Shown: positions 43,501-64,000 of the stretch, piece by piece
How the letters are laid out: the number at the start of each line of letters is the position of its first letter
Numbering within the stretch: the first letter of the stretch is position 1
Source: Vicugna vicugna
Lineage: Eukaryota
Direction of reading: 5' to 3'
NCBI GenBank assembly: GCA_013265495.1
Contig: MU057584.1
Coordinates: 598,608 to 662,607 of the forward strand
DNA length: 64,000 nucleotides
Translations under genes and position numbers: made by a program
Notes under the pieces: model-generated
What the model was told of the DNA's origin: nothing
The model's database searches: none
What the model saw: the letters and a program-made list of their open reading frames with translations, nothing else

Positions 43501-46500
43501 AAGGAACTGGGGTTTGGGGGGCAGAGGCTATGGGTGTGGGGAGGGACCCGGTTAATGCTGACTTATGGGCATCTGGACTGGAGTGGACCAGCCTTAGGAG
43601 TGAGCTGGTCTTGGGGAAACCTGGGGCTGGGCAGGGACCAGAGGCTTCGTTTCCCTTAATCACCCCTCCCCCAACGCACGCAGATCCTCACCTGTGATCT
43701 TGTCCAGCATCAGGTGCAGGCGGCAGCCAAAGGGGGCATAGAAACCCACAGTCACAGGGACGGGCACGTGGCAGAGGGTCTTGGCCAGGCAGCTGCAGTA
43801 GACATCATCCTCTGTCAGGATCTCTGGGGGCCGGGGTTGAGGAGGGGGTAGAGGTGGGGAAACTGAGTCAATGAGGCTGGCCAGGCACCACCCTCCTCCC
43901 ATCTGCCCTCCCCAGTGCCTGCCCTCAGCTGCTCCCTGCACAGGGATCTCCCTCCCTGACTCCCAGAGATGACTCAGGTCAAACCCTCAGACAGAAGCAT
44001 CTGTGTCCCTCTGGGCCCCAGACCCACCAGGCAAAGGCTGGAAGGCTAGTTTCCCTCTGGCCCCGACCCAGACACGTGTGGGTACTTGGCTGCCCTGGCC
44101 TTAGGTCACCAGGCTCAGCCACCAGCCCGTGGTCCCCCTAGGAAAATCCCATGGGCTTTTCTTGAGACTCCAGGCCTGCAAATACTTAAGATACCGCTTT
44201 CCATGCTCAAAACTTCTCCGTGTCAGTTCCTTCCTCCTCTGTCAGCCTGGCTCTGAGTACAGCCGGGCCCCGACAGCCACAGGCTCCTCAGCTTCCTGCC
44301 CACTCCTTCCTCTGCTCTGTCCACCTCTCTGTGACCCTGTGCCCGCAAGTCCCTAATCCTGCCCCAGCCTGGGCAGACGCATCTTCTGGTCCTGGCCCTG
44401 CCACCTTTCTCTGCATACCGGGCAGAGTGATGCCCCTGAGAGGCTCAGTCCCCTCCTCTGAAGAGTGGGATGCAGAGATGCCAGAGAGTGTGGGTGCCAA
44501 AGGGCCTGGCCACAGGGGTGGGCCCTCTGTCAATGTCGTCGTCTGGAATGGCCCTTTAGGGCACAGGTTCTGGGGTAATTTCTGGCACAAGCATTTAATG
44601 CGCAAGCACTATAGTGTCCACTCTGCAGAGGGTGCCTGCCCTCCCGTCTCGGGCTCCCACTGAGCACTGTTTCGTGGACCCAGAGTTGGGGCACCAGAAA
44701 GGTAGGGCTCAGTGTGTGTGTGGGGGGGGCGCCAGGCTGGCCTCACAGGGCATGGTGGGGAGGAAACACCCACTTTCACAGAGGCCTGGGCTGTAGCTTC
44801 CTTCCCTCCCTGAGGGCCGGCACAGGGCCTGGAGGCATAGCTGGGAGGGCAGGAGGAAGACTCCGCCGAGGTCAGCTAAGCTGGCGGCCGGGAAGATCTG
44901 AGCCTGCTGTGCCTGGTGGCTGGCTGACCTCACCTCATCGAGCCTCTACTTCCCTTGAGTGAAATGGGCAGCGTGGCCCAGAGGCTGTAGGGACAAGGTC
45001 GTGTCTGCCTTGGGGCCAAGTCCCTGTGAAGCTGTTGTTCTGTTTTCCAACCAGACCCAACACGTACCTCCACCTCTACCTCCCTGGTCAGGCCACCAGC
45101 TCCTCTCGCCTGGACTCCAGTTTCCCACCCCCCGCCTCCTCCAGTCCACTTTCCTGTCGGATCTCAAGTCAGTGCTTGTGCCTCAGGGTCCCACCTCCCT
45201 GGGATGTCAAAAGCCGAGCCTTCACCGCGGCCAGCGGCCACGAGGCCCACAGCGTCTGGCCGCCTTCTTCCCTCTTGCACACCCTCTGATCTTCCTCCTC
45301 ACTGCCCCCTGCTCAAGCCATGTGGACCTCCTTGCCTCCCCCTGGCCCCAACAGAATCTTTGCATTTGCTGATCCTGCTGCCACTTACTTGAGAGAACTG
45401 CCCCATCTTTGCTCAAATGTCACCTTCGTGGGGCTTCACCTGATGATCCTGTTTAATTTGCCAACCCTGATGCGCCCTCCTCTCTCCTTGCTTTATTCTT
45501 CCCCATCCTGGTTATCAGCTGGTGACACACTTTTGAACTTTGCTACTTATCTTGTTTCTTGTGTCCGCCCCTCCCACCCCACCACCATGGACCCTGAGCT
45601 CCACAAAGGCGATGATCTCTGTCTGCCCAGCTTCCTGGGGCACCCCCAGAACAGCACCTGGTACCCACTACAGGGTCCAGCACCACCTAGTCACAGAATG
45701 AATGAGTGAGTGTGTGAGTGAGGGGGTGGGTGGAACCCCTCCCATGGCTGCCTTGCTCTCTCCATCCCCTAGGCTGCTTCCTACCTCCTGCTTTAGCCGC
45801 ACACTTGACCCGTCTCCCCCATACCAGAGCTGGCCAACAAGCGGGTGTGCGCGGCCCCCTGCTCCAAGTCCTCTGCAGAGGAAGGGCAGGGAAGAGAGAA
45901 AGCAGAGCTAGGGTGTCAGCAGAGGGTGAGAGCTGGGGCCCAGGCCCCTGGCCAGCCCAGGACGGGGGCACTGTGGACAGGCCCGGCCTAGAAGCTTGGA
46001 TCCCAGCAGGTGAAGCAGGGGTGGCCGCCCGAGGCCCAGGGCAAGGGACCAGAGCAAGGGGTGAGGATGGCAGGCCCTAGGCCCAGGTGGGAAGCGAGGC
46101 AGCAGGGACAGAGTCCTGGGAAGGCAGGGTAAGCACCGGAGCTGTAGGAGGTGAAGGAGCCATAGGCAGTGGGGGCAGGCAGGGGCCGAGCCTCAGTGGG
46201 CCTGCTGGGCTCCAGGAGGGTGCCGGTGGCGGAGGGCAGGGCCGGGCTGCTGCTGGCCGTGGTGTGTGCCGTGGTGGGTGCGGGGGGCGGCTGGGGGGCG
46301 CTGGCTGGTTGTACGGGGGCAGTTGAGGTGGCAGGCATCCCCTTCTGGGCCCTTTGGGCAGGGTAGAGCCGCTGCCGCAGGGGGCTGGGAGCTGGGGCCT
46401 GGGGCTGCCACCGCTGCTGCTGCTGCTGCAGGAGCGGGGGCTGGGGGCCCCAGCGACAGCCGCCGACACACCCCCTGTGGCTGTGGTAGGCCAACTGCCA

Positions 46501-47552
46501 GCATGCCTGGGGGAGCGGCCAACAGGGCCCGTGGGCTCCAGGTGCTGCTAGGTCATGGCACCACTGATGACAGCATCCTGGAAGGAAGGAAGTGGGGGTG
46601 ACTGGGCCTGGGTCCCTGACCCCTGAGGGGCACCAGCAGGAACCAGGTCAGATCTTCAGGTGCAGGCTGGGGCTTATCTCTCAGCTGAGGCTCAAGAGGA
46701 GTTGGGGAAAATGACGAGGTGGGTGTGGGCAGAGGGGCCCCACTCTGTGCTCTTCCACAGGTCAGGGGAGAAGAGGTCCAGGGGCCTGGACTCTAGCCAG
46801 GTGAGGGGCTGGAGAGGGCATGATGCCCCAGAGTCCCTGCTACCCCAAAATCATTGGTCCCTGGGGTGTCCCCAGTGAGGGGGGACTGAGAGCAATCCAT
46901 TGGGAGCTGGCCTCATTGGTCCAGAGGAGGCCAGAGTGATGGGCGGTGGCTGTGGGGAGGGGGCTGGCATGGGGACTGAGAAGGGGGTTGGCCTTTGCAC
47001 CTGGGCTCAGAATAGGCCAGCAGGAATGGGGCTGCCCTGGGAGGCAAGGAGGCTGAATCAGCCCTAATGGGGGCTAACTGCCCCCTCTGAACCCCGGGCA
47101 GGAGCACCTGCGGTCACCGTGGGAGGCTGAACCCCCGCCTTGTTCGAATACACTCAGCGTGGGGCGGGGGCTCGCTCTCCTACCCACACCCAAAGCTGCC
47201 ATGTTGTGGGGCAGTCCCCACAGGCCTGGCGATCTGGGGAGGGGATTCTTTCCATGCTGGGGAAGGGGCAGGCCGGGTGGGCCTCCCCCGCTGGCATCCC
47301 AGCTCAGGCTCCCACCTTTGGCCCTCTGTGCGGAAGCCTCTGATGGTGAGCGCTGGTGGCATTTTCCCCTGGGGCCTGAGGTTTTCTGCTTAGCAATCCA
47401 CTCAGCAGCCCCCAACTCACAGGCCTTTCTCCCTGCCAGACCCCCCAAACTGAACCCCTACCTTTTTGGTGCCCCATTTCCGGGTCCAAGAAATAGCAGT
47501 CGGTGGGCGGCCGGGAGCCCTTGGCGAAGTGGACGGTGTAGTGCTTGTGCAT
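40579..47552 (-). CDS. NKPD1: NTPase KAP family P-loop domain-containing protein 1, 822 aa: complement(join(47552-47462,46577-46137,43823-43692,42383-40579))
   Basis: ATG in good Kozak context (gccaccATG). Exons read MHKHYTVHFAKG...DPEMGHQK / GCCHQW...GSFTSYSS / EILTEDDVYCSCLAKTLCHVPVPVTVGFYAPFGCRLHLMLDKIT / ALMQQE...FIRFSAWQYAGTDKLWAGL... with hydrophobic TM-like segments, ending GKPRPVA-TAA. All introns are GT-AG and phase 1. FSAWQY is the typical KAP-family motif. Confidence 0.95.
40690..42410. other. Intragenic CpG island covering the NKPD1 last exon
   Basis: Visibly very high GC and CpG density compared with the flanking CpG-depleted DNA. Confidence 0.75.
44598..44715 (+). pseudogene. 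Inverted, frameshifted copy of NKPD1 first coding exon inside the intron between NKPD1 coding exons 2 and 3
   Basis: Removing a 13-nt insertion (44646-44658) gives MRKHYSVHSAEGACPPTEHCFVDPELGHQKG versus the true MHKHYTVHFAKGSRPPTDCYFLDPEMGHQKG (20/31 aa, 68/91 nt by hand count), with the same AAAG|GTAGGG donor. Confidence 0.85.
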
Positions 47553-48354
47553 GGTGGCCGGGGGTCTGTGTAGAGAGGAGTGGGGCAGGGCCAGGCTCAG
47601 TGCCCAGCCCTCTCAGGCCCCAGCAAGGGCCCCCCACCCTTCACCATGACAGCTCCCTGTGACCTGAGATGGATGAGAGACCTCGTCCCTGATGTTGGGG
47701 GCCTGGGTCACCCAGGTGGGGCAGAGGGGCTCTTCTGAGTAACAGTGAGAGGTCAGGACAGGGGACGGATGGCCAGACGTGGGAGGACAGAGAACAGTTG
47801 GGGGGGTGTTAGGGGCTAATTTGGGGTGGGTAAGGTTTCCAAGGGTTAGGTAATTGGGTGTTTGGGAGCTGCTAGGAATTTCCAAGAGGCCAGGACAGTG
47901 GCGGTGCTGAGCAGACAGAATCTGGGAGCCGGTGGGTAGTTGAGTAAAAATAAGGGGGACCTAGGCACTGGGGTGTATGCTGTGGAAGGTGGGGCCCCTT
48001 TCCCACCTCAGTGTGGTGAGAGGTGGGAAGCAGTGAGCCACAAGTGCCTGAAATTTCGGGGCTGGGACATTCGGTTGGAGGGTTGGAGGGAGGGGGACTC
48101 TAGGGGAGCAAATGAAATCAGGGTGGTCTGATTTGGGGAGAGGCTCAGCCTACTGGGGATGAGATGAAGTGCTCTGGATTTAAAATGTCAAGAGCCCAAA
48201 GCAGAAGTGAAGGAAGGATGCTGTTTGGAGGCGGGGACAGGGGAAGCCCTGAGACAGAGGAAACAGGGTGATGAGAGTAAGGGTCAGTGAGGGTTGGGGG
48301 CTAGGCACGTGGCCCCTGCCCACTCCCATCCCCCCAGTCCGGGGTCCCACGTAC

Positions 48355-48520
48355 CTGACAGCAGCTTCACAGCCCCAGCTCCCTGCCCCGCCGAGCTGCT
48401 GTACCAGCCCCACTGCCCGCCGCCAGCTGCGTCAGTCAGCGCAGGCCCAGCTGGTGAGAGGCCCGGGAGCTGGGAGCCCAGCTGCCCGACCGGTTTGCCC
48501 ACCTTGTCCCCGCCCCTTCC
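48355..48520 (-). promoter_or_regulatory. Putative non-coding first exon and promoter of NKPD1 (5' boundary uncertain)
   Basis: Strong donor CAG|GTACGT at 48355/48354, pairing with acceptor ctcctctctacacag (AG at 47567-47566) 13 nt upstream of the ATG. Locally GC/CpG-rich, with a TGACGCA CRE-like site and a GC box. Confidence 0.5.
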
Positions 48521-50646
48521 TCAGCCCGCCTGGCCTGTCCCTGTCGGGGAGCTATGCTCTCGAGGACTGGGGGATGCCCCCTGAGGACTGAGGCCTGCCC
48601 CTGTGCAGTGCCCCCCCGTAAGGGATGGAGATGGCCTGCCTCGGTGCTGCCTGGGGCGGGACCTGCCAGGGGATCTATGGGGCCAGCCCCTGGGCCCGGC
48701 TGCTGTGGCAGGGAAGGAAGCTGGGACAGGGAGTGGGAGTCTAGGCCCAGAGAAGATGCAGTCCTGGGTTCAGCTGCCAGTTCCTCCAGGGCCCAGCTGT
48801 GTGGCCTTAGGCAGGTGACTTCACCTCTCTGAGCCTTGATTTCCTCATTGCTAAGTGGGCCAGCATCCATGCCTGCCTCTCATGGTTGTCAGGAGGAGCC
48901 CGCTGAGCACAGATCCTGGCACCCAGCAGTGACAGCGGCAGCTCATGCTCCCTGGGCACCAACCAACCAACCCATTTACCAGCTGCTCTAGATGCTTCAT
49001 GTAAAATGACGACACTTGCAGACATTCTTTGAGAGGTGAGGGGGCAGGTGGGGCTAGGGTTGGGCAAGACGTGCCTTAGATACCGTGGGGGCTCCTCTGC
49101 TCTCTAGGGTCCTGTCTCCCTGCTGCTGGCCTGATGGGGAGAAGGAGAGGCAACCACAGAACAGTGCCCAGGACAAGAGAGAAGGGAGCCGACCAGCCCT
49201 GCAGGGCACCCCACTGACCAGACACTGCCCCCGGTAGCCAAGCTATGCCCTCTTCCCTCCCCTGGGCTACTTCTCTCTCCTCCCCCAGGCCTTAAGCTGC
49301 TTCTCCCAGGAAGACTTCCTTCCTCTCCTCTGCCAGTTCAGTGCTCAGCCCCCTTCTCCACACCCCAGTCCTGTCAGGGGAGGCCAGGCTAGTGTGTCTG
49401 AGTGAGGGGTGAGTCTGCAAGGGAACCTTCAGGACAGCCCCTGAGCTTCTTGAGGGCAGGGCTAGGCCAATCCCCTGCTCTCCCCGGCTGCCCTCAGACA
49501 AAGCTGAGTAACTGCAATTCATTTGGGAAACACCTGCAGGCTCTGTGCTGGACAGTGCCAGCACCCAGCCCAGGGACCCAGAGGGACCGAAGAGGAAAGG
49601 CTCCTGGGCTGTAAACAAGTAAACACAGAGCACGGCAGGATGAGGCTGTCAGGGAGCCTGCTCAGGGCTGCAGGCTCAGGGCGAGTGAGTAACCACTTCA
49701 AGGGGTCCGGTGGTCAGCAGAGGCTGCGAGGCTGCTGGACACCAAAGAGGGAGCATGAGTTTGGAGAGTTGGGTACTCAGGCAGGGAACAGCATGTGCAA
49801 AGGCTCAGAGGCAAGCCAGGGAACGTGGTGCTGAGCTGAGTGCGCTGGGGAGGGGCGGCTGGACAGGGTGTCTGCACCAGACTCTACAGAGGTAGAGAAG
49901 CCCCACCTACTGTGGGTGTTTTAAACAAGGAGACCCTTCCTCCTCCCTTTGGGTTTCCCCCAGCCTCAGTTTACAGCTTGAGGCAGGGGTACTTACCCAG
50001 CTCAAGCAGCAGGTGGCAGAGCCTGGCAGAGTCCAGATGTGTGATGCCCCCAGATACTATGAATGTAAACAGGGGAGACGTCAGGGGGAGGGGTGAGGGC
50101 ACAGATGCCAAGCTGCCTGGGGACTGGTCAGCCCGGCCATGTTCTGGATATGACTCGAGTCCGCCAGGCACATGAAGTATGTGTGTGTGTGCGCACACAC
50201 GCTCTCAGGGGCGGGGGTTGGAACTGAGGGTGTCTGGCTCACCCCACCTCCATCCATTCTTCGTTCTGGCAGCCCCCAGTCCAGCCCACCCCTGCCGGCA
50301 CTCCGGTCACTCAGGGCCCCTGGCCCTGCTCCCAAAGAGAGGTCCGTCCCGTGGGGCCTGCTGGGCAGAGGGCAGCCGTAGACTTGTTGATGTGGTGAGG
50401 CTGCCAGCACTGGGGGCTGCCCGCCCCTGCTAGGTGTGCCGGATGAGTGAGAGGCAGCAAGCTCCAGGGCTCAGGCCAGGGTGGAGGGAGAGCAGGAGGG
50501 CAGGAAATGAGGGATGAGGAGCTACGTGGGGTACTCTGCTTCCCCATAGGATCCACGACACGAACTGTAGCTTGCAGATGCCCCTCCCCTCGTAGCATTG
50601 AGTGACCCCCACCTTCCACTTTGAATCTGGTTCCACGGATAGAACC

Positions 50647-50652
50647 TTTATT
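50647..50652 (-). terminator. Polyadenylation signal of TRAPPC6A
   Basis: tttatt on + about 250 nt past the TRAPPC6A stop. Confidence 0.65.
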
Positions 50653-50900
50653 GAACATCTGCCATGTGGAGAAATGTGTCCAACTCGGGCATCCCTCCAC
50701 ATCAGCCCTGACTGCGGCAGGGACCATCTTGCCCCTGGGACGCCCCCACCTCCCTATGACACCCATCTGTTGAGCCTGTGTGATGCCCTGAAGTGCCAGG
50801 ACCCTGTCTCCTTAGCATCAGCCCTCTGGCCTCCACCAGAGGCAGTGGCCGGGTCCCCGGGCCAGCGTGAGGCTCAGCTGGGGATGGGACCTGAAGCACC

Positions 50901-53900
50901 TCAGGATTTCTGGATCACCACCTGGAACTTACCTGGAAAAGACGGGTTGGCTTTAGCTTGAGGCAGGTCGGAGGGGAGAAGCAGAAAGCACCCCAAGAGC
51001 TCAGAGACGTTCATCCCTGCCCTGCGTGTCAGCCTGGGTGGCCTCAGGCGGGGCCTGTTTCCTCACTGGTCAGAGGGGTGATGCTCTCCGCCCACCTGCC
51101 CTGCATCCCAGGGATGTGTGGGTGACTGAGGGCACAGAGGCCAAGCATGTAGGTCGCCAGGGAGGGGCCTGGTGCAGCTTCCATGGCATGTTTTGCACAT
51201 GTTGCTCAGAGCCTGCCCACTTGGGCCCTGTGCCCCCCTGGGGACCAGCAGAGGGAAAGCACCGGGAGGGACGGGGAGTGGAGGTCTGGCTGCAGGCTGC
51301 TCCAGGTCCCTGCCTGTCCTCTGTCTGACTGAGGACTCTGTGGACCAGTGGGGCCCTGGGGGTCCAAAAGACACCCCATCACGCAGGCTGCAAGTTCTGT
51401 GGGGCCTGACTTTGGAGCCCCTGCTAGCCTCAAGGGATGGGAAGACCCCCCCACACCCCAACTCACAGGCGGGCAGGGCTGCCACGGAGGCGGTGACCAG
51501 GCTCTTGATGCCCAGGGTGCTGAGGGCGCCGCGCAGCAGGCCGCAGGTGAAGGCCAGGAACTGGGGGCGGGGGCACAGGTCACCGTGGGAAGAGAAGGCA
51601 GGCCAACACCCAGGGCCATGCTGCATGCTGGGATTTGGGCCTCACCGCGGGGTCCACCCTTTCCCGGGGTCCTGGGCTTGGGCAGGGGCCTACCTGGCGG
51701 TGGGGCTGGAGTCCCAGGACTGCCCGCATACCTTTGGCGCTTCCTCCAGGTACTGCTGGCCCGAGGCCATCCGGACAAGGAGAGGGAAGCTGTTGTCCTG
51801 CAGGACGTAGGTTCCCTGGGGACAGAGAAGGGGCTCATGGGGGCTGGGCTGGCACTGTACCTTTGTGGTGGGAGGAAGGGAAGCAGGGACCCAGTGCCCC
51901 AGCTCCTCTGCGATGAGGTCTGTGAGGACCCTTCCCTCAAAACTACTGTGGTCACAGGCCCGCCCTTCAGAGCTGCAGAAGGGTCCACGGGCTTTCAGAC
52001 CCAGGCCTGATGTCCACCCATGGGGGGTGTGTTGGTCCTCCCCACCCCCACTGCCTTCCAAGATGCAGGACTTCCCAGGGTTGTGAGAAGCTGCCAGCCA
52101 GGCTTGGGGAGCGGCCAGCTGGGCCAAGGCACAGTGCAGGTGCCCGATGGGAACTCAGACCAGGCTGAGACAGGCAGTGTCACGAGGGGCCTTCTGCCGC
52201 CCTGGGGCCACCCTGGAGGCTTGTGGTCATCTGGGAATAGCTGCAATGCCCCACTGCAGCCTCCTGGCTTCCCTTGAAGGATCAGGATCGCACAGAGGGC
52301 CCGACGGGGGCTGTGCCTGCCTCCCAGCTGGGGAGGGCCGGCTGCAACTTCCCTCCATGGTGGTCCCCCTCCCCCAGCCCTTCTGATGTCAGGTGGGGCC
52401 AGGCTTGGGCACGCACCTGGTGATTGGTGCGGAGGCTGTCCATCTGCTTTTGGAACACAGCCACCCACAGGTCTTTGCACAGGAACTTGAGGACATCCAG
52501 CTCCTCCCTGAAGGCCAGCATCTCCCGTGGCAGCCTGGGGGGCATTGGCAGACACTGTGGAGCCAGGCTGGGTTCCTGTGTGGAGCCACACCCCATCCCC
52601 GCCTGGGCATGCCCAGGAAGGGACCCCACCTTGGGCCCTGCCCACCTCTCACCTCTCGCCCAGGGCCTGGCCCACACGGAAGCCCATGCCCTCCAAGACC
52701 GATAGGCTCATCTTCTGTCCCTACAAGGCCAGGGAAGAGAGGTTCAGGGGCCTTTGGCCACCTCCACCAGGAAGCCACCCAGTGTAGCAACTGACAGTTC
52801 AGGGTGTGGAGACCCAGGAGGGAGTGCCTTCCTGCACAGGCTGGCAGGACAAGCTCAGGCCTCTGGAGTGGCAGGCTGGCTTTGTCCCTCCAGCTCGTGA
52901 CACCTCCAGTCCCTCACACGCCTCCATAGACCCCATCCGCCCTCGGGACCTGCACCCGCACCTCACTCCAGGAAAAATGAGGGTCTTCCCCAGGCTCAGC
53001 TGCACCCATGCTGGTCAGCTCTTTCCTGATAACACCAATCGATTCTGTACACACTTCGAGTGTCCATCCTTACAACACCCTACGGGGTAGCACTCTGATC
53101 ACCCCTAAAGCTCAGGATGACTTGCCCAGGGGCTCCTGGGGAACAAGGGGTCCAGAAGGTGTGGGCCCTGGCTGGGCCAGCAGGGGGCTGTAAAAGCCAG
53201 CTATGATCATCAGGCCTTAAAATACTAGCCAAGAATCCTGGGATAGATACGCAGGGGCTCAGGGGAAGGAAATGTTCCACCCGGTGCTTGGGGAAGGCAG
53301 TGGCAGCCACATGGCCTTCTGGAGGGCAGGCCAGGGTCCCACGGAGGAAAGACTAGGCACGGGGAGGTGGGCACTAGGAGGGCTGTCCTTGGTGTCTGTG
53401 TGCCTGGGGAGTGCAGACAGCGTGGTTGGGGGAGAGCTGACCTGTATGTGTTTCTTAGCCGTGTGACCTGGAGAGAGCAGAGGGAGAGAGGCCCAAACTG
53501 GGAGCATCAGAAATATCAGGACGGCCTATGGCGTGAGGCACCACGCCTCTTGGAGAAAATCTTGCAGGCCAAGGTGGGAGAACAGAGAAGAAGCAGGGGC
53601 AGGACCCGGGAGGGAAGCAGCTCTGTGGGGGTGGCCCACATCAAGAACACCCCGTAGGGTGTTGTAAGGATGGATGCTCGAAATGCGTACAGAATCGATT
53701 GGTGTTATCAGGAAAGAGCTGACCAGCATGGGTGCAGCTGAGCCTGGGGAAGACCCTCATTTTTCCTGGAGTGAGGTGCGGGTGCAGGTCCCGAGGGCGG
53801 ATGGGGTCTATGGAGGCGTGTGAGGGACTGGAGGTGTCACGAGCTGGAGGGACAAAGCCAGCCTGCCACTCCAGAGGCCTGAGCTTGTCCTGCCAGCCTG

Positions 53901-56900
53901 TGCACACCAGAGGCACATGAGAAACATACTGAATGAACAAAGTGAGGAACTGAGACTCGAGCATGCACTGGGCCTCGTACAAACCCCCTCGTTTAATTCT
54001 ATCAACCCCGCAGGGTAGGCTGCATGTCACCCCTGAAGACCGGGGCACAGAGGGGTTATTAGGAAACACCTCCCAGAGGTGCCCTCAGCCACAGGGCTGA
54101 CCTTCAGACCTGAGCAGGTCTGGCTCCTGAGAGTAGCTGGCAGCTGGGTGGGTGGCCGGGACGACCCCCACAGCTGTCCTGGCCCCAGCAGAGGTGGCCC
54201 TCTCCTCTGTCTGGCCACATGACACTCAGGCCCTAGCCCCCCATTCTGGCCTCTTCCTATGGGCACCGGGCCTGGGGTGCCCCCGCGACGCCGCTCTCTG
54301 GTGCCCTGAGGTGCAGCAGGAATGCCGCACGGGAGGGTGCGATGGCTGATGCTGACCAGGCTGAGAGGCAGTGGGGAACGCACGCCCGGAGCCAGATCAG
54401 CCCCTGACCCCCGCTGGCTGTGGGATCGGGCAGTGGCCAACTGTCCTGGCCTGTTTCCTCATGTGGACGAGGACCAGGTTGACAGCACTATTGCCAAGGG
54501 TCCTTGTGAGGATTAAGGAAGTTGGAAATGTAAACCAAGTGCTCTGAGTCGGGCTCAGGAAGGGGTTCCATCACTCACCACCTCTGCATCCATCAGCCTC
54601 CGGAATGAGCCCCCTGGCCGATGGGGGAAAGAGCCCTTGGCTGGAAGGAAAACCCCACAAAGGAGGGGCTCTGTCCTGTGTGCTGACTGATCGCAGCACA
54701 GGGATCACGGCCAACTCCCGGGTCACCTTCCTTCTAGAGGTGAGTGCCTGGAGGGGGCCAGGCTGGGCCCTGCTGACCCAGAGCACATCTGCACATCTGG
54801 GCCCCAAGGGCTCTCCACTCCCCTTTGTTCACTCCACAAACATTCCCTGGCCTTCCTCTAGGAGCTCACCTACTGTGCCTGGTGGGGGGATGACGACCTG
54901 GTGAGAGGGCTGAGCACCCCCCCTCCACCGCAGCACAGAGCAGGGCAGAGCCAGCTCCCCCAGGAGTGGTCCCAGGGTTGGGGATTACTGGGGAGGGGCC
55001 GGAAAAAGCGCGGAGAATGCAGCTTAGGCTGAGAGGTGGGGGGACAGTCAGGAGAGGTGGGGCAGGGAGGGGGCCTCTGCAGTCCAGGCTAAGGAGAATG
55101 CCTTTTCCTCACATGACAAGTGCTACACGAATGTTCTTGATGTGGGCCATATTAGAGGGGAACATAGATGGTCCCTGCCCTGATGAAGCTGGCATTCTGG
55201 GGGTAGAGGGGTAATGGCCCCAGGGGCTGCAGGGAGGGAAAAAGGCCGTGTAGTGCTCCTGGGACATGCCCTCTGTTGGGCAAGGATGCTCTCCTCTGAG
55301 GGAGCCATGTCTGTGTCTGAAGGGAGAGTTAAGCAGGGGAGGGGGGTGGGGGAGGGCAGATGCCCCAGGCCCAGTTCACAGCCAGGACAGCAGCCTTGAG
55401 CAGGGACAGCCAGAGTCATCAGGGTCCTCAGCCCAGCCGGGGAGCTCTGAGGGGGTGTGGGGGGATTTCCCAAGTTCAGGTTTCCCTTAGGTGAGCTTCT
55501 GACTGCTTGAGTGTGAATTCTGGCCCTGGGTGAGCTCTCTAATGTCCCATGCCTCAGGGTCCCCACATGGGAACTGTGGTGAGTGACAAGCAGCTCACTC
55601 CAGAGCTGCTGTTACTGTTGGACCCACTGTCCCCAGCCCTCGATGGGGGCCAGTTAAACATCTACTGAAGGGACTGTGGGAGGCAGGGAGATGGGGAGTG
55701 GAGGGCAGAGGGCAGGCAGGGGGTGGGAGGAGGGTGGAGAAGGAGGCAGAAGCCTCACCTGCTTTCACAGCAGGACTCGGAGGCATTCAACCCCAGTCCC
55801 CACAAAAGCTCTTCATACACTAGGAGTTTCTCCTTCCTATGGAGGGCAAGGTGGGCTCTCTCATCCCGTTGGAAGCTTCTGGAGCCCAGCCCAACCTAGT
55901 CGGTGCCCTTCTGGGCTCCCATAACAGCCCGCTGAGAGGAAACGAGATGTTGGGAGAAACACGGAGGACCCTCCCCCGCCAAGAAGGCTTATCAGTGTCA
56001 GCATGAAGCGCATCCAACAAAGAGCACGGATGCTCGGAGGAAGGGACGATGGGACAAAGGAAAGTTCTTGGAAGTGAAAAATATGGTAGCCCAAATAAAC
56101 ATTTGTTCACAAGGGAGCTGAAAAATGGACAAACCTGGCAAGTAGATAAAACCTCACAGGTCATTAAGAAGAAACCACGAGGTAGGGGAAAAAAAGAAAA
56201 ACGAGATAAAAGTCAACTCGTGGAAGAGATCCAGGAAGTCTAGTATTCATCCGAGTGCCAAAAATGGAACAAAGCAGGAGAAAAAACAATGAGAGATTTA
56301 AACATTCATTCAAGCGTTCAGACTGAAAAGGGCCACAGAGTAGGATGAATGGAAAACAAGCCAACCAAACTGGCCGCCCGCCCCTTCCTGGACTGAAGAG
56401 ACCAGAGGCTGGCTCAGGGGCTGGCTGGGGGGCCGTCTGCCTGGCTCTCCTGCCTGCCCTACCCCTTGCTTATTTGTGAGGTTCAACCCCCACCCGTGGA
56501 GCCACTCTGAGCTGGGCCAGGGCATCCCGGGAAGGAGCGGCCCTGCTTCCTGCCTTAAGACAAGCCCGGGGAGAAGGGATGACTTTGATCTACCTCAAGG
56601 TGAATGGTCCCAGGAGACCCAAAAGCAGCGCAGTGAGAGACCAGGTGAGTGAGAGGGAAAAGCCAGCACACTTCCCAGCCTGTCACCCTGGCCTCTCCCC
56701 ACTCACCCACCCAGGCAGCTCCAAACACCCACTCCAGCCACAGCAGCGCCCTGCCCCCGCCCAGTCTCCACGTAGTCAGGGAGGTCTTTCTAAAAAGTAC
56801 ATCTGAGCCTGGCACACCTCAGTTGAAACTTTCTATGGCTCCCATGACCCTTGGGTCAGAGACCCAGTTCCTGCGTGGAGACCCAACCACTGGCTCGGTG

Positions 56901-59900
56901 GCCTCAGATGCCCTGCGCCCTCTCCCGGCCTCTGTCCCCTGCTGTCCACTTTGCCGGGATCCAGTTGGTTTCCCAGGTTCTTGCCAGACGACAGGGACAG
57001 TATCTGATAGCTGCTATCTGCACCCCAGGCCCTCCTGAGAGAAGGGGCTGGCCTGGGTGCTTGCTGGGCCTCAGTGGATGAAGGCTGCCCCGGCAGAGCT
57101 GTTCCTTGGCCACCGGCCAGGGCTCACAGTACTGGGTGACAACGCATTACACACACACAGGAGTTCACTCCTTTGCCCACAGTGTTCCCTGAGGTGGAAA
57201 AACCACTGCCTCCTCCTCCTCCCAGAACTTTTCCTGCTTCGGTAACAAAGGTCTTTTGACTCCTGGTCCCTCTGGCTGGTCTCCCATTCAACTTGCAGCC
57301 GTCCAGGAGAATCCATTCACCAGCTACAAATAACCAGGCAGCACAGGGAGATCAAAAAGCCCTAAACAGTGACTGTGGCCCCTGGGTGCCTGTGCTGCAG
57401 GGACATGTGCTCAAGAAGCTCCAAGGCTGGTGGGAGGGGCACACCTGACACCACAGACGAGCTCAGGAGTGGATGCCCGGGTCCTGATTTAGCCTCTGAT
57501 CATGCGGCGTTGGGAAGGTCCTCCCTCTTGGGCCCCTCAGTCCCTCCTCTGTAAAGTAGAATGCTGACATCCACCCCGGAGGGCTGTTCTGAGGATGAAA
57601 TCCAGTAAGATCCTGTGCTGGAGACACGAGAAGTACCTGAGAGTACCTGCATGTGGTTCAGACAGGACACTTTCTGGACCAAAGAGAAGGAACAGAGATG
57701 GGAGGGGCCAGGAACAAAAGACAAAAGACTGTGGGGAAACAGAGCGGTTGCCCAAGACGTGCCCCTGAGAAACAGGACTCCTCAGCTTGAAGGAACGTGA
57801 ACTCTTGTGAGCCCAGGCCACCTCCCGGCCCAGCTCGGCCAGAATCTCTGGTGTGGGACCCTAGCATCGCAACTGCGGTGACAGCCAGGCAGAGGGCCAC
57901 AGCCCAAGGGTCTCGGGCATGCTTGTGCTCTGAAAGCCCTGTAGTGAGCAAACCAGAGGAACCCTGTGTTCCCCACACTGGCTTGGCAGCAGAAACTCAT
58001 TAAAATCTTCCTGAAGAGTGTCAGGGAGGACAGAGAAAGATAGGAGAGCGTTTATGGCACAGGCTTTGGAAGTGGGAGGCCCAGTAACATTCCTGACTCC
58101 GCCACTTGACCACAAGGACTCCATCCATCAAAGCCTCTGTCTGCTCATCTACAAAGTGGGGAGGATCAAATGAGACTAGGAGCATGAGGCCCATGAGACA
58201 ACATGGTAGGTGCTATTATTGGTCACAGTATTAAATGAATTTCGGTTCCCACCTCCATCCTCCACAGCCCAGGGGCTGCACTCACTCCTTCAGCAAATCC
58301 ACATACCATTCTGTGGTGATACCCAGAACTGGTCCCCACCCACACAGCACACAGCCCAGCAGAGGAGCTGGATATGAATCAAAGGATCACACCGATACAG
58401 AATTCAGATAGATATTTATCGTGATGTGGGGGAGGGGGGCTGTGGGAATGGAACAAGGATACCTCACTTCCACTGGGGATTCAGGGAGGGCTTCCCTGAG
58501 GAAGGGGCATTTGAGCCCAGATCTGAAAGATTCATAGGTGTCAGGGCAGAGAAGATGTGACAGATGAAATGAGCATGGAGATAAGGGGGAGGCTGGTACG
58601 GGGCAGAGAGGAGAAAGCCTGGACTAAGGCAGGGAGGGTCCAGAAGGGAAACAAATTTATACCCCCAGACAGGCAGGGCCTGGTTGATGGCTGGAGGCAA
58701 GGGAGTAAAGGCAGATGTTGGGGACTCCTGGGTTTCTGGCTTGCAAGCTAGGAAGGATGGGGTGCTGAGATACTGCAACCCCCTCCCCAATGCACAGTCC
58801 CCGCCTCGTTTTCTCTTTCTCACAGCATTAACGATATATAATCATTTATTTGTCTCCCCCACTACCATATAAACTCCTGGGGGCCAAGGGTTTTGCATGG
58901 TGGGCTGAGTCTTCCCCAGGCCCTACAGCAGAGCCTGGCACTTGACAGATTTTATTTACAGTTTAAGTGAATGAGCTCAAGAAAACTATGTTGAGATGAT
59001 AAAAACACTTGTGAGGGCTCCTAAATTGGAAAGAACACCTAGGCCAATAAAAAACAAGTCTTGTAAGTAGATGATGATGAGGAGGATCATAAAAAGAATA
59101 TTAATGAAAAAAGGAAGCACAGCCCCCGTTTATTAAGCATCTACTATCTCCCCCACCCGTTTCTTGGTAACAGATTTTATAACATGTTTTGAGGGCTGAC
59201 TATGTGCTAGACTTCCCACTAAGTGTTACAAACTTTGAGCATTTATTTTTCGTAAGTCCAACTTCCAAAATGCCAAGCACGCTCCTTTTGCAGGGCTTCC
59301 ACCCTATTCCCTCTCCCTGGAATGCTCTTTCCCTCACTTGCTCCCCAGGCTTGCTCCCTCCTTTCTCTTCTCAGAAAGTCCTTCCTCCACCATCCATCAC
59401 TCCATTCCTTTTCTTTCCCCAACTCTCCTGAAGCTTTTTTTTTTTAAATAGAACTTCTCACTAACTGATGGCATATTCTATTTTTTATTGTTTGACTCCC
59501 CTACTGAAATGTAAGCTTCGCAAGGACAGGAAAACAGTGCCCGGAAGACAACAAGCGCTCAGGAAGTTTGTTGACTGAATAAATGTCTCACTTTGAGTCT
59601 CAGGTGTTTACAAGGGAGGAAACTGAGTCACAGAGATCGAATCATCTGCTCTCACACCTAATGTGAGTGGTGCAGGCGGGATCAACCCTGGCAGTAAGTT
59701 CTCAATATATATCTTATAACAGTAATTATCGTAACTACGATCCGCTTAGTCTGTGCCAGACTTTGGACTAAGAGCTTTACCCGAACTGGCTCAGTTCCAG
59801 TTCCCGCGAGGACCTCAGGTCCCGCGAGGACCGCCCGGCTGCGACCTCCGCTTTCCATAGTTGGAAGCCAGCGCCCGAGGTCGCCGAGCGAGGCAAGGGC

Positions 59901-60086
59901 GGGGCAGGGGTTCGACTGGGAACTCTTCCGCGCTCCCCGGGACCTCGACCCAGCCTTCCCGCAACGGCCAGTGCCTCCTCCCCTCTGGGGCCCGGCGCTC
60001 ACCCCGGGACTGGGGTCGGGGTCGTGCGCCCACAGCTCCGCCACCATCTCTGTGTGCAGAAACTCGAACAGTGCCGCGTCCGCCAT
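50901..60086 (-). CDS. TRAPPC6A: Trafficking protein particle complex subunit 6A, 159 aa: complement(join(60086-60003,52720-52653,52534-52417,51815-51732,51560-51467,50932-50901))
   Basis: MADAALFEFLHTEMVAELWAHDPDPSPG / GQKMSLSVLEGMGFRVGQALGER / LPREMLAFREELDVLKFLCKDLWVAVFQKQMDSLRTNHQ / GTYVLQDNSFPLLVRMASGQQYLEEAPK / FLAFTCGLLRGALSTLGIKSLVTASVAALPA / CKFQVVIQKS-TGA. Bet3/Trs33-family sequence; all junctions GT-AG with consistent phase. Confidence 0.96.
52833..53088 (+). repeat. Left arm of 256-bp inverted repeat in TRAPPC6A intron 1
   Basis: Reverse complement of 53649-53904, with only 4 mismatches (53051, 53054, 53061, 53062). Confidence 0.97.
53649..53904 (-). repeat. Right arm of 256-bp inverted repeat in TRAPPC6A intron 1
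   Basis: Reverse complement of 52833-53088. Matching peptides appear on opposite strands in the ORF track (e.g. MQLSLGKTLIFPGVRCGCRSRG at 52799-53005 - and 53732-53920 +). Confidence 0.97.
59270..59585 (+). mobile_element. L2 3'-end fragment
   Basis: ccctctccctggaatgctctttccc...aatgtaagcttc...tttgttgactgaataaatg, a typical L2 tail. Similar fragments at ~11060-11340 and ~45200-45710. Confidence 0.6.
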
Positions 60087-60730
60087 GCGCCAGCCTCACA
60101 CGCCCACAGACAGCCCAGCGCTTCGTGCTGTCATTGGCCCGGCTGGACAAGCCCCGCCTCTTCCACCTAAGTTCGAGCCTGCCTACTCTCGATTCCATTG
60201 GTGTTTCAGGCTAGCCCCGCCTTCCTTTTCTGGACTCTCGTGGTGCGCGCGTGAACCTGGGAGACTAGAGGGAAAAGCTGCTTTTCCTACATTGGCCGCG
60301 AGTGACAGGTAGCTCCGCCCTTCCCTGTCTCGTCCCTGTTTCCGGGTCCTCGAGCATTTCCATTGGCCGAGTCACTGGTTACACGTGACATCTCGTCTTT
60401 TAGAATCCCTATTTGTCCACTCCTCTCACAGCACAACGCGGAAGCGGCAGCCCAACCGCTTTCCTATTGGCCGTACCTATATCCACGTGACTCCACACGC
60501 GCCCTCCAAGCTGGTCCTGAGGGCTTGCTTCAGAGTTGGTAGCCGCACGGCCCACGTGATTGGCCGCCGACACCCGCCCAATCTGCTCTCTCATTGGTTG
60601 GGGCTTGTCGCCCTCCTCCCTCGGTAAAGACGCAGCACTTCGGCTGGGTAGCGGATCTCGCAGGCTCGGAGCTTCGGTGACCCGGTACCGTCTTCAGTGG
60701 TAGAGCTCCCCGTCCCGCCCCGACTAGCTC
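60087..60730. promoter_or_regulatory. Bidirectional CpG-island promoter shared by TRAPPC6A (-) and BLOC1S3 (+)
   Basis: Head-to-head genes and CpG-rich sequence. Eight CCAAT/ATTGG boxes (60133, 60197, 60291, 60362, 60466, 60559, 60578, 60593), three CACGTG E-boxes (60382, 60484, 60553) and GC boxes. Confidence 0.85.
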
Positions 60731-61168
60731 ATTCTTCCTAGAGTCATCTGGACTGTCACCCTTTCTATGACTCAGGCACTGGTCCCTGAACGGCTCCTGA
60801 GAGCCCGTGTGCTTCCCAATCTGACATAGGCTTGGAGGCCAGTGTGGAGGGTGTGGCCTCTGCTCGGAGGCAAAATCGGACAGAGCTTTATTTGGGACTC
60901 TGGGAGCTCGTGCTTCAGAGCCTTGATCAAGCTGGTGGTCTTCAGTTTCCCCATTAGTACACTGAAGAGGTTGCAGTCCAGTAGCCCCCATCATCAGGGA
61001 TAATCTCTGTTTGCAGAAAAGGAAACAAGCCCAGGCAGGGGAAGTGGATGGCCCCAAGCCGCTAAGATAGTGGTGGGGCTGAGAATTCAGAACTTGCGCC
61101 TTTTAACCACCATAGGGCGCCCGCGCCTCATACCGTCCCTACGCGCGCCTTCTCCCTAGCTCGGTGCC

Positions 61169-61777
61169 ATGGCGTCCCAGAGTCGTCAGCGGAGGCCGCT
61201 GCGGAGGCCTGAGACGGTGGTGCCGGGGGAGGCGGCCGAGACGGACTCGGAGTTCTCTGCGTCCTCGTCGGAGGAGGAGGAGCTGTACCTGGGCCCCACT
61301 GGCCCGACGCGAGGCCGCCCCACGGGGCTGCGGGTGGCTGGGGAGGCCGCGGAGACCGACTCAGACCCGGAGCCGGAGCCGGAGCCGAAAGCCGCGCCGA
61401 GGGACCTGCCTCCTCTTGTTGTGCAGCGGGAGACGGCCGGGGAGGCCTGGGGCGAGGAGGAGGCCCCGACGCCCGCTCTCGCGCGCTCCCTGCTGCAGCT
61501 CCGGCTGGCTGAGAGCCAGGCGCGGCTGGACCACGATGTAGCGGCCGCGGTGAGCGGCGTGTACCGTCGCGCGGGCCGCGATGTGGCCGCTCTGGCCGGT
61601 AGGCTGGCGGCTGCCCAAGCGGCAGGATTGGCGGCGGCCCACAGCGTGCGCCTGGCGCGGGGGGACCTGTGCGCTCTGGCCGAACGCCTGGATATCGTGG
61701 CTGGCTGCCGCCTGCTGCCCGACATCCGCGGCGTGCCGGGAACCGAGCCGGAGCGAGAGCCGGGACCGCTGGCCTAG
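61169..61777 (+). CDS. BLOC1S3: Biogenesis of lysosome-related organelles complex 1 subunit 3, 202 aa, single coding exon
   Basis: MASQSRQRRPLRRPETVVPGEAAETDSE...SSSEEEELYLGP...SLLQLRLAESQARLDHDVAAAVSGVYRRAGRDVAALAGRL...LDIVAGCRLLPDIRGVPGTEPE. gccATGg Kozak context. An acceptor-like ccttctccctag just upstream implies a 5'-UTR intron. Confidence 0.96.
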   Translation: MASQSRQRRPLRRPETVVPGEAAETDSEFSASSSEEEELYLGPTGPTRGRPTGLRVAGEAAETDSDPEPEPEPKAAPRDLPPLVVQRETAGEAWGEEEAPTPALARSLLQLRLAESQARLDHDVAAAVSGVYRRAGRDVAALAGRLAAAQAAGLAAAHSVRLARGDLCALAERLDIVAGCRLLPDIRGVPGTEPEREPGPLA

Positions 61778-63310
61778 CCATGACCCACTCTCCCTCCTGA
61801 CTATGTCCTGGGGGTAGGCTCTGTGCCCCTCTCATCATGCTGTTACCCTCAGGGCTAACCCCGCTCCGTGAACAATACTGAGTGTCTGTGTCTGTGTGTG
61901 GATGGCTGGGTGGGTGTAATGGTGTGCAGCCCCGCTGGGCCTTAGCATCAGGTTCCTCCCCCTGGTCCTGGCTCTTGCTGCCTGGTGCTATGCCTGTGTC
62001 TGAAGCTTGGCTCCAGCTCTTGGGTAACTAGCATCTCCTTGATGTGTCTCCATCTTGGGGACTCACTGGGCATCACCTTTACTTTGTCTCTGCCTCAGTT
62101 TGGTTTCTCAGTTGGGCTGGTCTTGCTTCTTTCTCCCCCCAGGATCCCCAGAATCTAGCGGGGATCCCTGATGTCTTCCTTTACTCCTTTGGCTCCAGTT
62201 CTGGAATTTTGTCCCCCTAGTCTAGGCCCTTTTTCTGCTCCCAAGGCTTGGCCCTGATTCCATCCCCTCCTTCTAGTCCTTGCTCTGCTATCTCCTGGTT
62301 CCTTGTGCTTAGTTCCACCTCCTTGGCCTGATCTTGTTTCCTAGGCCCGGCTGTACCCTTAGGTTTGGTGCTGCTGCTTTTTGCTTCTCCCATCCTGCTT
62401 AAAATACCTATCTGATCCTGGGCTGCAGGGACCCTCTATGGTTTCTTTCATCAAGATGAGGTCCCCTCCTGATCCCAAGGGGGTCCCCCTCCCAGCTCTC
62501 CAGGTCCAAGGTGACATCTCCTCCAGACCTGAGTTGGTGTGTCCTCCCCACCTCCAGGCCAAACTCCAGAGACAAGATGAGCCTCCTCCTGACTCTCCAG
62601 GCTGAGACCCCTGTGACACTCAAGGCCCAAAACAGACTTGCCCTGGAACTTGGGGCACAAGATGACACCACTTTGCAGATAAGGACCACGTGCATTGTGT
62701 CTGTTCATCATGTTGGCCCTTCAGTGCTTAAAGGACTTGGATTTCTGGGGCTCAGGGCCTGGGGTTAGCTCCTTTCTTCTCACCTGCTCCATCTTCCCCT
62801 CCCAGCCCTAGTCCCTAAGTCCCATTCACGTGCATTCCCCTACCCCACTCTCTTATTATCCCAACCGGAAGCCGAGATCTGAGCCCCCAGGATGGGGAAG
62901 TGGGGAAGAGTGCTGTGTGGCTGACTCAGCAGACTCACTGGATAGCCTCTCCCAACTGCAGAGGAGGCAGCCGCACTGCCTGTGTTCTGGAAGAAGCCTG
63001 GGAATTCATCCTGGGGCTGAGTGGAGGGGAAATAAGAGGTTATTTGGCCTGGGGTGGGGTGGGAGGATTACATTCTGCAAATGGGAGGATTGAGAGAATG
63101 AATGTACACTCTTTCTCTACCTGACCTAAAACAGAAAAATGGAGAAAGAAACTTCCTATTAGGGTTGGCTGTTGCAGTGCCTTGAGCCCGGCCGGTTTAC
63201 ACCCCCACCCCCAACTCCCTGTGGAAGTGACGGCTTCCTTCCGATGGCAAACCCAGCATCAGCCATGGGTCTTATCTTTGCCAATCTGAGAGGTGAAAAA
63301 TGGTACTCGG

Positions 63311-63796
63311 TGTTGACTGAAATAAAATGCACAACCTAAAAATTGAGATTCATGTTTTATTTGGTGGCTTTCTGAGGACTCGAACCCAGGAGGCAGCCTC
63401 TCAGATTGCTCTGTTCATAGAGGCAAGGAGGGAGCCAGGATATGTAAAAGTTTTGCCACAAAGACCAGGTAGTCAGAACATCGGAAGATTACTGTTAATT
63501 AAAGAAAATCAGATATATCAAGGAATTTAGCGCTTTTCTATGTATGGGAAGGTGCAAAGATCTGGGTTCATTGAAATAATTTTCTTGATATGCACCTAGC
63601 TGTCTAGGGCCAATTCTTCCACATCCTGAGTTCCCTTAGGGGACATGGTTGGGGGTGGCTGCAGAGGCTGGGCTGCCTGCTTGTCTGCATCCTGAGTTCC
63701 CTCTGCTCACCGTTGGGGGTGGCGGTAGTGGCTGATGACTTGATGGCCACAGCAGCCTTTGTTTACTGATAAGGCTGGCACTGTTTTTCACTCACA
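63311..63796. mobile_element. Solo LTR (ERV-like) inserted in an old L1 fragment
   Basis: TG...CA termini and a near-TSD (tcgg / tcag). The flanks rejoin as L1-like ttgccaatctgagaggtgaaaaatggtactc...gtagttttaaat. Family not determined. Confidence 0.65.
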
Positions 63797-63819
63797 TCAG
63801 GGTAGTTTTAAATGGCAGG

Positions 63820-64000
63820 AAATAAAATTAAAACCACAGTGAGACAGCATTTTACACCTGTCAGATTGGCAACATTTAAAAAGTCTAACAATACCGATTG
63901 TTGGTGTGGAGGTGAAACCAGGGAACTTTTACACCCTGTGGGTGAGAATGTACATTGACATAATTTCCTGGAAGACAGTTCAGCAATGCCTGGGGCAGCT
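63820..64000 (+). mobile_element. L1 fragment (ORF2 C-terminal region, degraded)
   Basis: aaaattaaaaccacagtgagacagcattttacacctgtcagattggcaacatttaaaaagtctaacaatacc. Confidence 0.7.

Follow-up and report, generated by a model that had tools for sequence, protein, structure and literature searches.

The window analysed here, a 64,000-bp stretch of the Vicugna vicugna genome (assembly GCA_013265495.1, contig MU057584.1, positions 598,608 to 662,607), carries the gene TRAPPC6A on its minus strand, and in the first intron of that gene lies the long, near-perfect inverted repeat with which we are concerned. The gene is identified by its exon 3 (52534–52417), in which 38 of 39 residues match human TRAPPC6A (PDB 2j3t_B, E 4e-21) while TRAPPC6B matches far more weakly, and the adjoining NKPD1 frame shows 100% identity to alpaca and 93–95% to camels, by which the window is assigned to alpaca (homologues of BLOC1S3 did not settle the species). 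Since the coding part of exon 1 lies at 60086–60003 and exon 2 at 52720–52653, both on the minus strand, the repeat is situated inside intron 1. Its parts and the surrounding exons, in window coordinates, are the following.

52833–53088: left arm of the repeat (3' arm of the pre-mRNA hairpin); where its outer end meets 52832 the junction is probably new (L2-tail continuation score 0)
53649–53904: right arm, the 5' arm in the pre-mRNA
52833–53050: 218-bp block identical in the two arms (partner 53687–53904), with 6 shared CpGs
53051–53062: difference cluster, 12 bp holding all 4 differences between the arms
53089–53631: spacer proper, 543 bp, the hairpin loop; probably inverted relative to the ancestor, judging from the patch and the junction remnants described below
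53632–53648, minus strand: templated insertion of 17 bp (18-bp match including 1 arm base)
55132–55149, plus strand: donor of the templated insertion, in the same intron, 1.5 kb away
52721–52832, minus strand: last 112 nt of intron 1, the acceptor region, outside the stem
60003–60086, minus strand: TRAPPC6A exon 1, coding part
52653–52720, minus strand: TRAPPC6A exon 2
52417–52534, minus strand: TRAPPC6A exon 3, from the human TRAPPC6A match

The two arms are gapless reverse complements of one another over 256 bp (98.4% identity, BLAST E 2e-126) and enclose 560 nt, the geometry being read from the assembly sequence alone. They differ at four positions only (53051, 53054, 53061, and 53062 of the left arm), all of them transitions and one at a CpG, which leaves identical stretches of 218 bp at the outer end and 26 bp at the inner end. 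Nothing comparable occurs nearby: the inverted pair that comes next in length in 45000–64000 has 29 nt at 76%, exact inverted matches other than this one do not exceed 22 nt anywhere in the window, and no second copy of the arm is found in it. The dimensions given in the initial annotation, a 256-bp inverted duplication with 4 mismatches, a 560-bp spacer, and an identical outer 218 bp, are exact on self-comparison, and its placement of the stem 112 nt upstream of exon 2 is borne out by the exon positions. It had also described most of the arm as not recognizable as a transposon, and this agrees, as far as the comparisons made (Rfam, plasmids, and phages, without Dfam or RepeatMasker) can show, with the single pair in the window and with the lack of any match to the repeat. 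The only repeat-like parts are the arm ends, the inner one being MIR-like and the outer one L2-tail-like according to profiles derived from the window. A miniature inverted-repeat (MITE) or foldback transposon with terminal inverted repeats was considered and rejected, as the outer flanks share no target-site duplication and the 64-kb window holds no second copy.

A further feature of the repeat, which the initial annotation missed, lies at the right inner junction. The last 17 bases of the 560-nt interval (53632–53648) are an exact inverted copy of 55133–55149, and with one arm base as microhomology the inverted match becomes 18 bp, to 55132–55149, 1.5 kb away in the same intron. A search at 62857 other window positions for an inverted copy of the local 17-mer no more than 2 kb away gave none, and about 2e-6 such cases would be expected for four junctions; the 18-bp match is unique in the window. 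Template switching in replication or break repair usually betrays itself by short templated insertions of this kind at a junction. In the excerpts available of PMC6286558 (the papers cited below are likewise represented by excerpts), inserted sequence and microhomology at the junctions of duplication-inversions are taken as evidence of FoSTeS/MMBIR (the first being fork stalling and template switching, the second microhomology-mediated break-induced replication), with nearby point changes ascribed to error-prone synthesis. Similarly, human inversions that lack old repeats are said in 10.1101/2021.12.20.472354 to carry adjacent insertions, and they are assigned there to Alt-NHEJ (alternative non-homologous end joining), MMEJ (end joining mediated by microhomology), or MMBIR. 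The locus presents the corresponding features, namely an inverted duplicated segment, a templated insertion, and 1 base of microhomology at a new junction, and on those that can be read from the window the repeat would belong with the small template-switch duplication-inversion variants, a known class.

The order of the ancestral sequence can be approached through old dispersed repeats, which we take to be MIR and L2 from their consensus sequences, since a repeat that continues across a junction marks that junction as old. Profiles were built from the copies in the window with 52700–54200 masked (16 MIR-like and 6 L2-tail-like copies), and two remnants cross a junction.

53063–53131, plus strand: MIR-like remnant across the left inner junction, which is taken as ancestral (anchored score 8.4)
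53895–53941, plus strand: L2-tail-like remnant across the right outer junction, which is taken as ancestral (score 13.6, from a 6-copy profile)

Anchored at the inner arm end, the MIR-like profile can be followed across the left inner junction for 43 nt of spacer; among 1500 random window pieces 33 reach the score of this extension, among 1500 shuffles 3 do so, and the extension across the right inner junction scores 0. The L2-like profile runs 37 nt beyond the right outer junction (a score matched by 6 of 1500 random pieces and 1 of 1500 shuffles), and past the left outer junction its extension again scores 0. Neither arm thus keeps both of its old neighbours, and for that reason the spacer has probably been turned round since the ancestral state. 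The ancestor would probably have consisted of flank A (to 52832), the reversed 543-bp spacer, one arm, and flank B (from 53905). The templated patch falls at one of the two junctions that repeat continuity calls new, and the two lines of evidence are in independent agreement. The initial annotation had raised a possible inversion polymorphism of the spacer, and the continuity of these remnants favours a spacer that is inverted relative to the ancestor. A second MIR-like remnant (53991–54050, plus strand; E 0.024 on 1.5 kb) lies just beyond the right arm.

We therefore favour, with somewhat better than even confidence, the view that the repeat is the scar of a small complex rearrangement by template switching, most likely without effect on the output of TRAPPC6A. 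A nascent strand would have switched templates three times, during replication or break repair, such that the arm was copied in reverse beside flank A and 17 bases were taken from 1.5 kb away. Two histories could have led to the present order. In one, the strand left flank A, copied arm and spacer backwards, took the patch, and resumed at the arm, so that a single event produced both the inversion and the flanking duplication. In the other, the strand returned after copying the arm and the patch alone, and the spacer was flipped afterwards by crossing over between the arms. Both would leave identical junction sequences, and the window therefore cannot tell them apart. Such a history closely resembles the dupINV-type FoSTeS/MMBIR variants as they appear in PMC6286558 and 10.1101/2021.12.20.472354, which likewise combine an inverted segment and a duplicated flank with three new junctions, a short insertion, and nearby point changes, whereas the alpaca case is far smaller (a 256-bp duplication and a 543-bp inversion), is intronic, is seen in a reference assembly only, and has 1-base microhomology. 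What the initial annotation had regarded as a lineage-specific structured element does contain the stem, but the templated insertion and the junction history would instead mark it as a rearrangement scar. The open literature yielded no paper on this repeat, with supplements outside the scope of that search, so that camelid variant tables could hold it; the camelid papers among the matches listed make no mention of TRAPPC6A.

Several points weigh against a quiet rearrangement scar and should be set beside the evidence above. Microhomology amounts to only 1 base, at the sole junction where it can be read without the ancestor. The ancestral order is built on two weak window-derived profiles; their anchors were picked by eye and the results are modest. 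Using the same profiles, nhmmer returned nothing in --max mode, and with loose filters it gave the L2-like piece at E 1.2 and missed the MIR-like piece at the left inner junction, while unanchored alignment scores were equalled by 375 of 5000 (MIR-like) and 258 of 5000 (L2-like) random pieces. Outgroup DNA was sought in two ways: the exon 3 pattern occurred in 0 stretches of metagenome contigs, and a protein scan gave 267 pattern hits, none of them confirmed. Furthermore, neutrality is here a default and not a result, and the gene models that bear on it are read-through NKPD1 models of which only the translated parts are represented. Finally, a quiet young duplication does not by itself explain why all 4 differences should fall in 12 bp of the 256 (probability of a span of 12 bp or less, 2.3e-4), with 0 of 218 outer and 4 of 38 inner positions differing (Fisher P 4.2e-4). 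Since the outer 218 bp show no difference, their divergence is at most 1.4% (95%).

Three readings of this cluster remain: a young event with error-prone synthesis 26–38 bp from the junction, an older event whose outer part was homogenized by conversion, and merging by the assembler. Correction of a quasi-palindrome was also tried as its cause and rejected: the fold of the left patch has -2.4 kcal/mol, a value that 52 of the 495 possible sets of 4 transitions attain too. An attempt to polarize the 4 differences by the MIR copies of the window failed (the 5' alignment was unusable); by the MIR consensus, the right arm looks ancestral at the differences, and this was not counted. The second of the three readings leads to an origin by the same rearrangement at a much earlier date, before the South American camelid radiation, with the 218 bp kept identical by conversion or crossovers and a spacer that toggles. 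We regard this as rather improbable, even though no difference is found outside the inner 38 bp, the 6 outer CpGs are intact in both arms, and the apparently inverted spacer could itself be one flip. The differences occupy just 12 bp, and the 26 bases on their inner side are identical, so that one mutational burst fits as well as slow drift, and one haplotype is known here, from a single assembly. Recurrence in humans, moreover, goes with long repeats, and short ones are enriched among single events in the material seen from PMC3961182 and 10.1101/2021.12.20.472354; toggling at 218 bp of identity is therefore possible and not expected. The recurrent inversions between inverted repeats described in the part of PMC3961182 considered here do have in common with this locus near-identical arms of more than 200 bp around a unique spacer, and the arms (256 bp, 98.4%) reach the size and identity threshold for inversion-mediating inverted repeats that the excerpt of 10.1101/2021.12.20.472354 uses. 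They differ in that those recurrent systems, as excerpted, have long repeats, while the arms here are at the lower size limit and one orientation is known from one assembly.

Graph assemblers that merge bubbles keep differences only within about one k-mer of the end of a repeat. An assembly or consensus artefact, in which one arm is absent or the arms are more diverged and their differences were merged except near one end, would be compatible with the position of the differences, no more than 38 bp from the inner end, as bubble merging would leave them. The sequencing runs do not discriminate one arm from two. In 14 of the 24 listed runs, under four organism labels, 0.88–0.93 of the region's 256 words are present (0.93 being the best of the 24; RNA runs, with shares of 0.08–0.23, were left out of account), and since a genome with a single arm would keep 0.954 of the 31-mers and one with a flipped spacer 1.0, the shares in the runs neither prove the second arm nor date the repeat. 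We nevertheless consider an artefact unlikely, because one would not expect it to bring in 17 bp from a place 1.5 kb distant, along with four transitions (one at a CpG), and then to return to the original strand, and because the outer end is equally anchored by unique flank, yet without a difference. The window contains no N, and its BLOC1S3 protein sits on a 77.9-Mb NCBI sequence.

A long intramolecular stem is a substrate for ADAR enzymes for as long as the intron lasts. The initial annotation had expected a long hairpin in the pre-mRNA, and the predicted fold agrees, with a 256-bp stem, a 560-nt loop, and a mean pairing of the 5' arm of 0.99; two of the arm differences appear in it as G-U pairs and the other two as one 2x2 loop. 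The arms contain 52 and 53 adenosines, respectively, and the stem would probably be an ADAR substrate until the intron is removed and may give trace small RNAs. The further suggestion that the stem affects splicing of exon 2 is weakened, since the arms lie on one side of the exon, the predicted exposure of the acceptor is not lowered, and 4 of 5 alpaca models code the exon. Specifically, the last 40 intron bases are predicted to be unpaired at 0.30 with both arms versus 0.18 in a single-arm model, and in the minimum free energy (MFE) fold 1 base of the linker plus exon 2 pairs with an arm or the spacer. We mapped 34 public gene models (one cluster being represented by 15 of its 23 members), of which 9 are from alpaca. 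Five of these reach TRAPPC6A, four of them coding exon 2 and the fifth starting in exon 3, and exon 2 is skipped only in 2 of the 24 camel-labelled models. None of the 34 models maps to the repeat. Loop-out skipping requires, in the excerpt of PMC13019027, repeats that flank an exon on both sides, and here both arms are upstream of exon 2; because they are in the same intron, exon 2 is not looped out. An effect of the predicted stem on exon 2 is accordingly doubtful, and the repeat is probably neutral.

These considerations bear on whether the repeat might be a functional element kept by selection, with the stem or its editing tuning exon 2 or hiding a pseudo-exon, or with the hairpin feeding pathways of small RNA or double-stranded RNA (dsRNA) sensing. 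The predicted stem is very stable and lies 112 nt from the acceptor, the loop carries an acceptor- and donor-like pair on the transcribed strand only, and near-perfect intronic stems may be scarce in camelids, judging from their content of short interspersed nuclear elements (SINEs), which according to the available part of PMC8605555 are almost all ancient MIRs, with no Alu. Yet the element has no known covariation or conservation, exon 2 is not flanked by the arms and the predicted exposure of its acceptor is not lowered, the mature mRNA would offer no target to small RNAs derived from the arms, the loop is unused in all 34 gene models, and Rfam gives no match. We hold selection for such a function to be very unlikely. 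The known systems that come closest differ in corresponding ways. Inverted Alu pairs that are ADAR-edited and loop out exons (PMC13019027, as excerpted) likewise form an intronic stem of about 250–300 bp near an exon, whereas the TRAPPC6A arms are unique sequence at 98% identity and both are on one side of exon 2. In mouse, the repeats of Anks3 (intronic) and Optn (at the 3' end, with a stem of about 300 bp and a 1-kb loop) give low-level 21–23-nt RNA, that of Optn being under 10 reads per million in most organs, in the portion of PMC11239679 available. Both form a long hairpin of similar geometry in a protein-coding transcript, but by the same excerpt their small RNAs are documented while the TRAPPC6A hairpin is predicted only, and the Optn repeat is at the 3' end while the TRAPPC6A repeat is spliced out.

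The pair of splice-like sites in the loop defines one further feature.

53442–53467, minus strand: candidate 26-nt pseudo-exon with splice-like sites, on the transcribed strand in the present orientation only

On the transcribed strand of the spacer an acceptor-like site (19 of 20 pyrimidines, then CAG) is followed 26 nt on by a GT donor-like site (53467–53442), and the opposite strand of the spacer, examined for the same patterns, has no such pair. Among 13 such acceptors in the window only this one has a nearby donor, by a rule written after the site had been seen. The candidate pseudo-exon, which is the only exon-like feature that the arms flank on both sides, occurs in none of the 34 gene models. 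Should the proposed inversion have brought it onto the sense strand, the orientation could matter for splicing. That the spacer still flips in camelids between the 218-bp blocks, and thereby switches a frameshifting pseudo-exon controlled by the stem or its editing, is a speculation to which we give very little credence. If it were true, the locus would hold a toggling dosage allele, invisible to single-nucleotide polymorphisms (SNPs), of the pigmentation-linked TRAPPC6A, beside BLOC1S3, in a species bred for coat colour.

As a likely neutral scar the repeat matters little; it illustrates a template-switch rearrangement in small compass, with every part open to reading. It also lends itself to asking whether conversion or repeated inversion can operate on as little as about 220 bp of identity in the mammalian germ line. 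It may be among relatively few near-perfect intronic stems in the camelid genome, and as such would be well suited to a search for ADAR editing and endogenous small interfering RNAs (endo-siRNAs). It would be much more important if its orientation varied among animals and altered the splicing of TRAPPC6A.

The surroundings of the repeat offer some observations of their own. TRAPPC6A and the single-exon gene BLOC1S3 (61169–61777, plus strand) stand head to head about 1.1 kb apart (60086–61169) and share one CpG island. Both genes are tied to pigmentation in mouse; Gwynn et al. (2006) reportedly deals, by its title, with Trappc6a and mouse pigmentation, and the mouse Trappc6a pigmentation lesion is said to be an insertion in intron 1. 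Older alpaca gene models (P0160, P0297, P0298) disagree with the window over a single residue of exon 1 in each of two reading frames (60003–60030), and at least two alpaca haplotypes of TRAPPC6A are therefore public. Intron 1 also contains a 38-nt cassette exon (58148–58111, minus strand) inside a MIR-like copy (58205–58071), coded in 13 of the 34 models, among which alpaca and each of the three camels are represented, and read together with exon 1 in a different frame that starts at the ATG at 60198; it is apparently the exonization of an old SINE. Models that join TRAPPC6A to NKPD1 (40582–60198, minus strand; Pfam PF04051 and PF07693) exist for alpaca and the three camels and also for naked mole-rat, chinchilla, slow loris, horseshoe bat, and macaque, representing either recurrent read-through or a habit of annotation. 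Beyond BLOC1S3, a 25-nt inverted pair at 92% (63278–63302 and 63848–63872) encloses 545 bp of AT-richer sequence, the start of which gives us the impression of a solo long terminal repeat (LTR).

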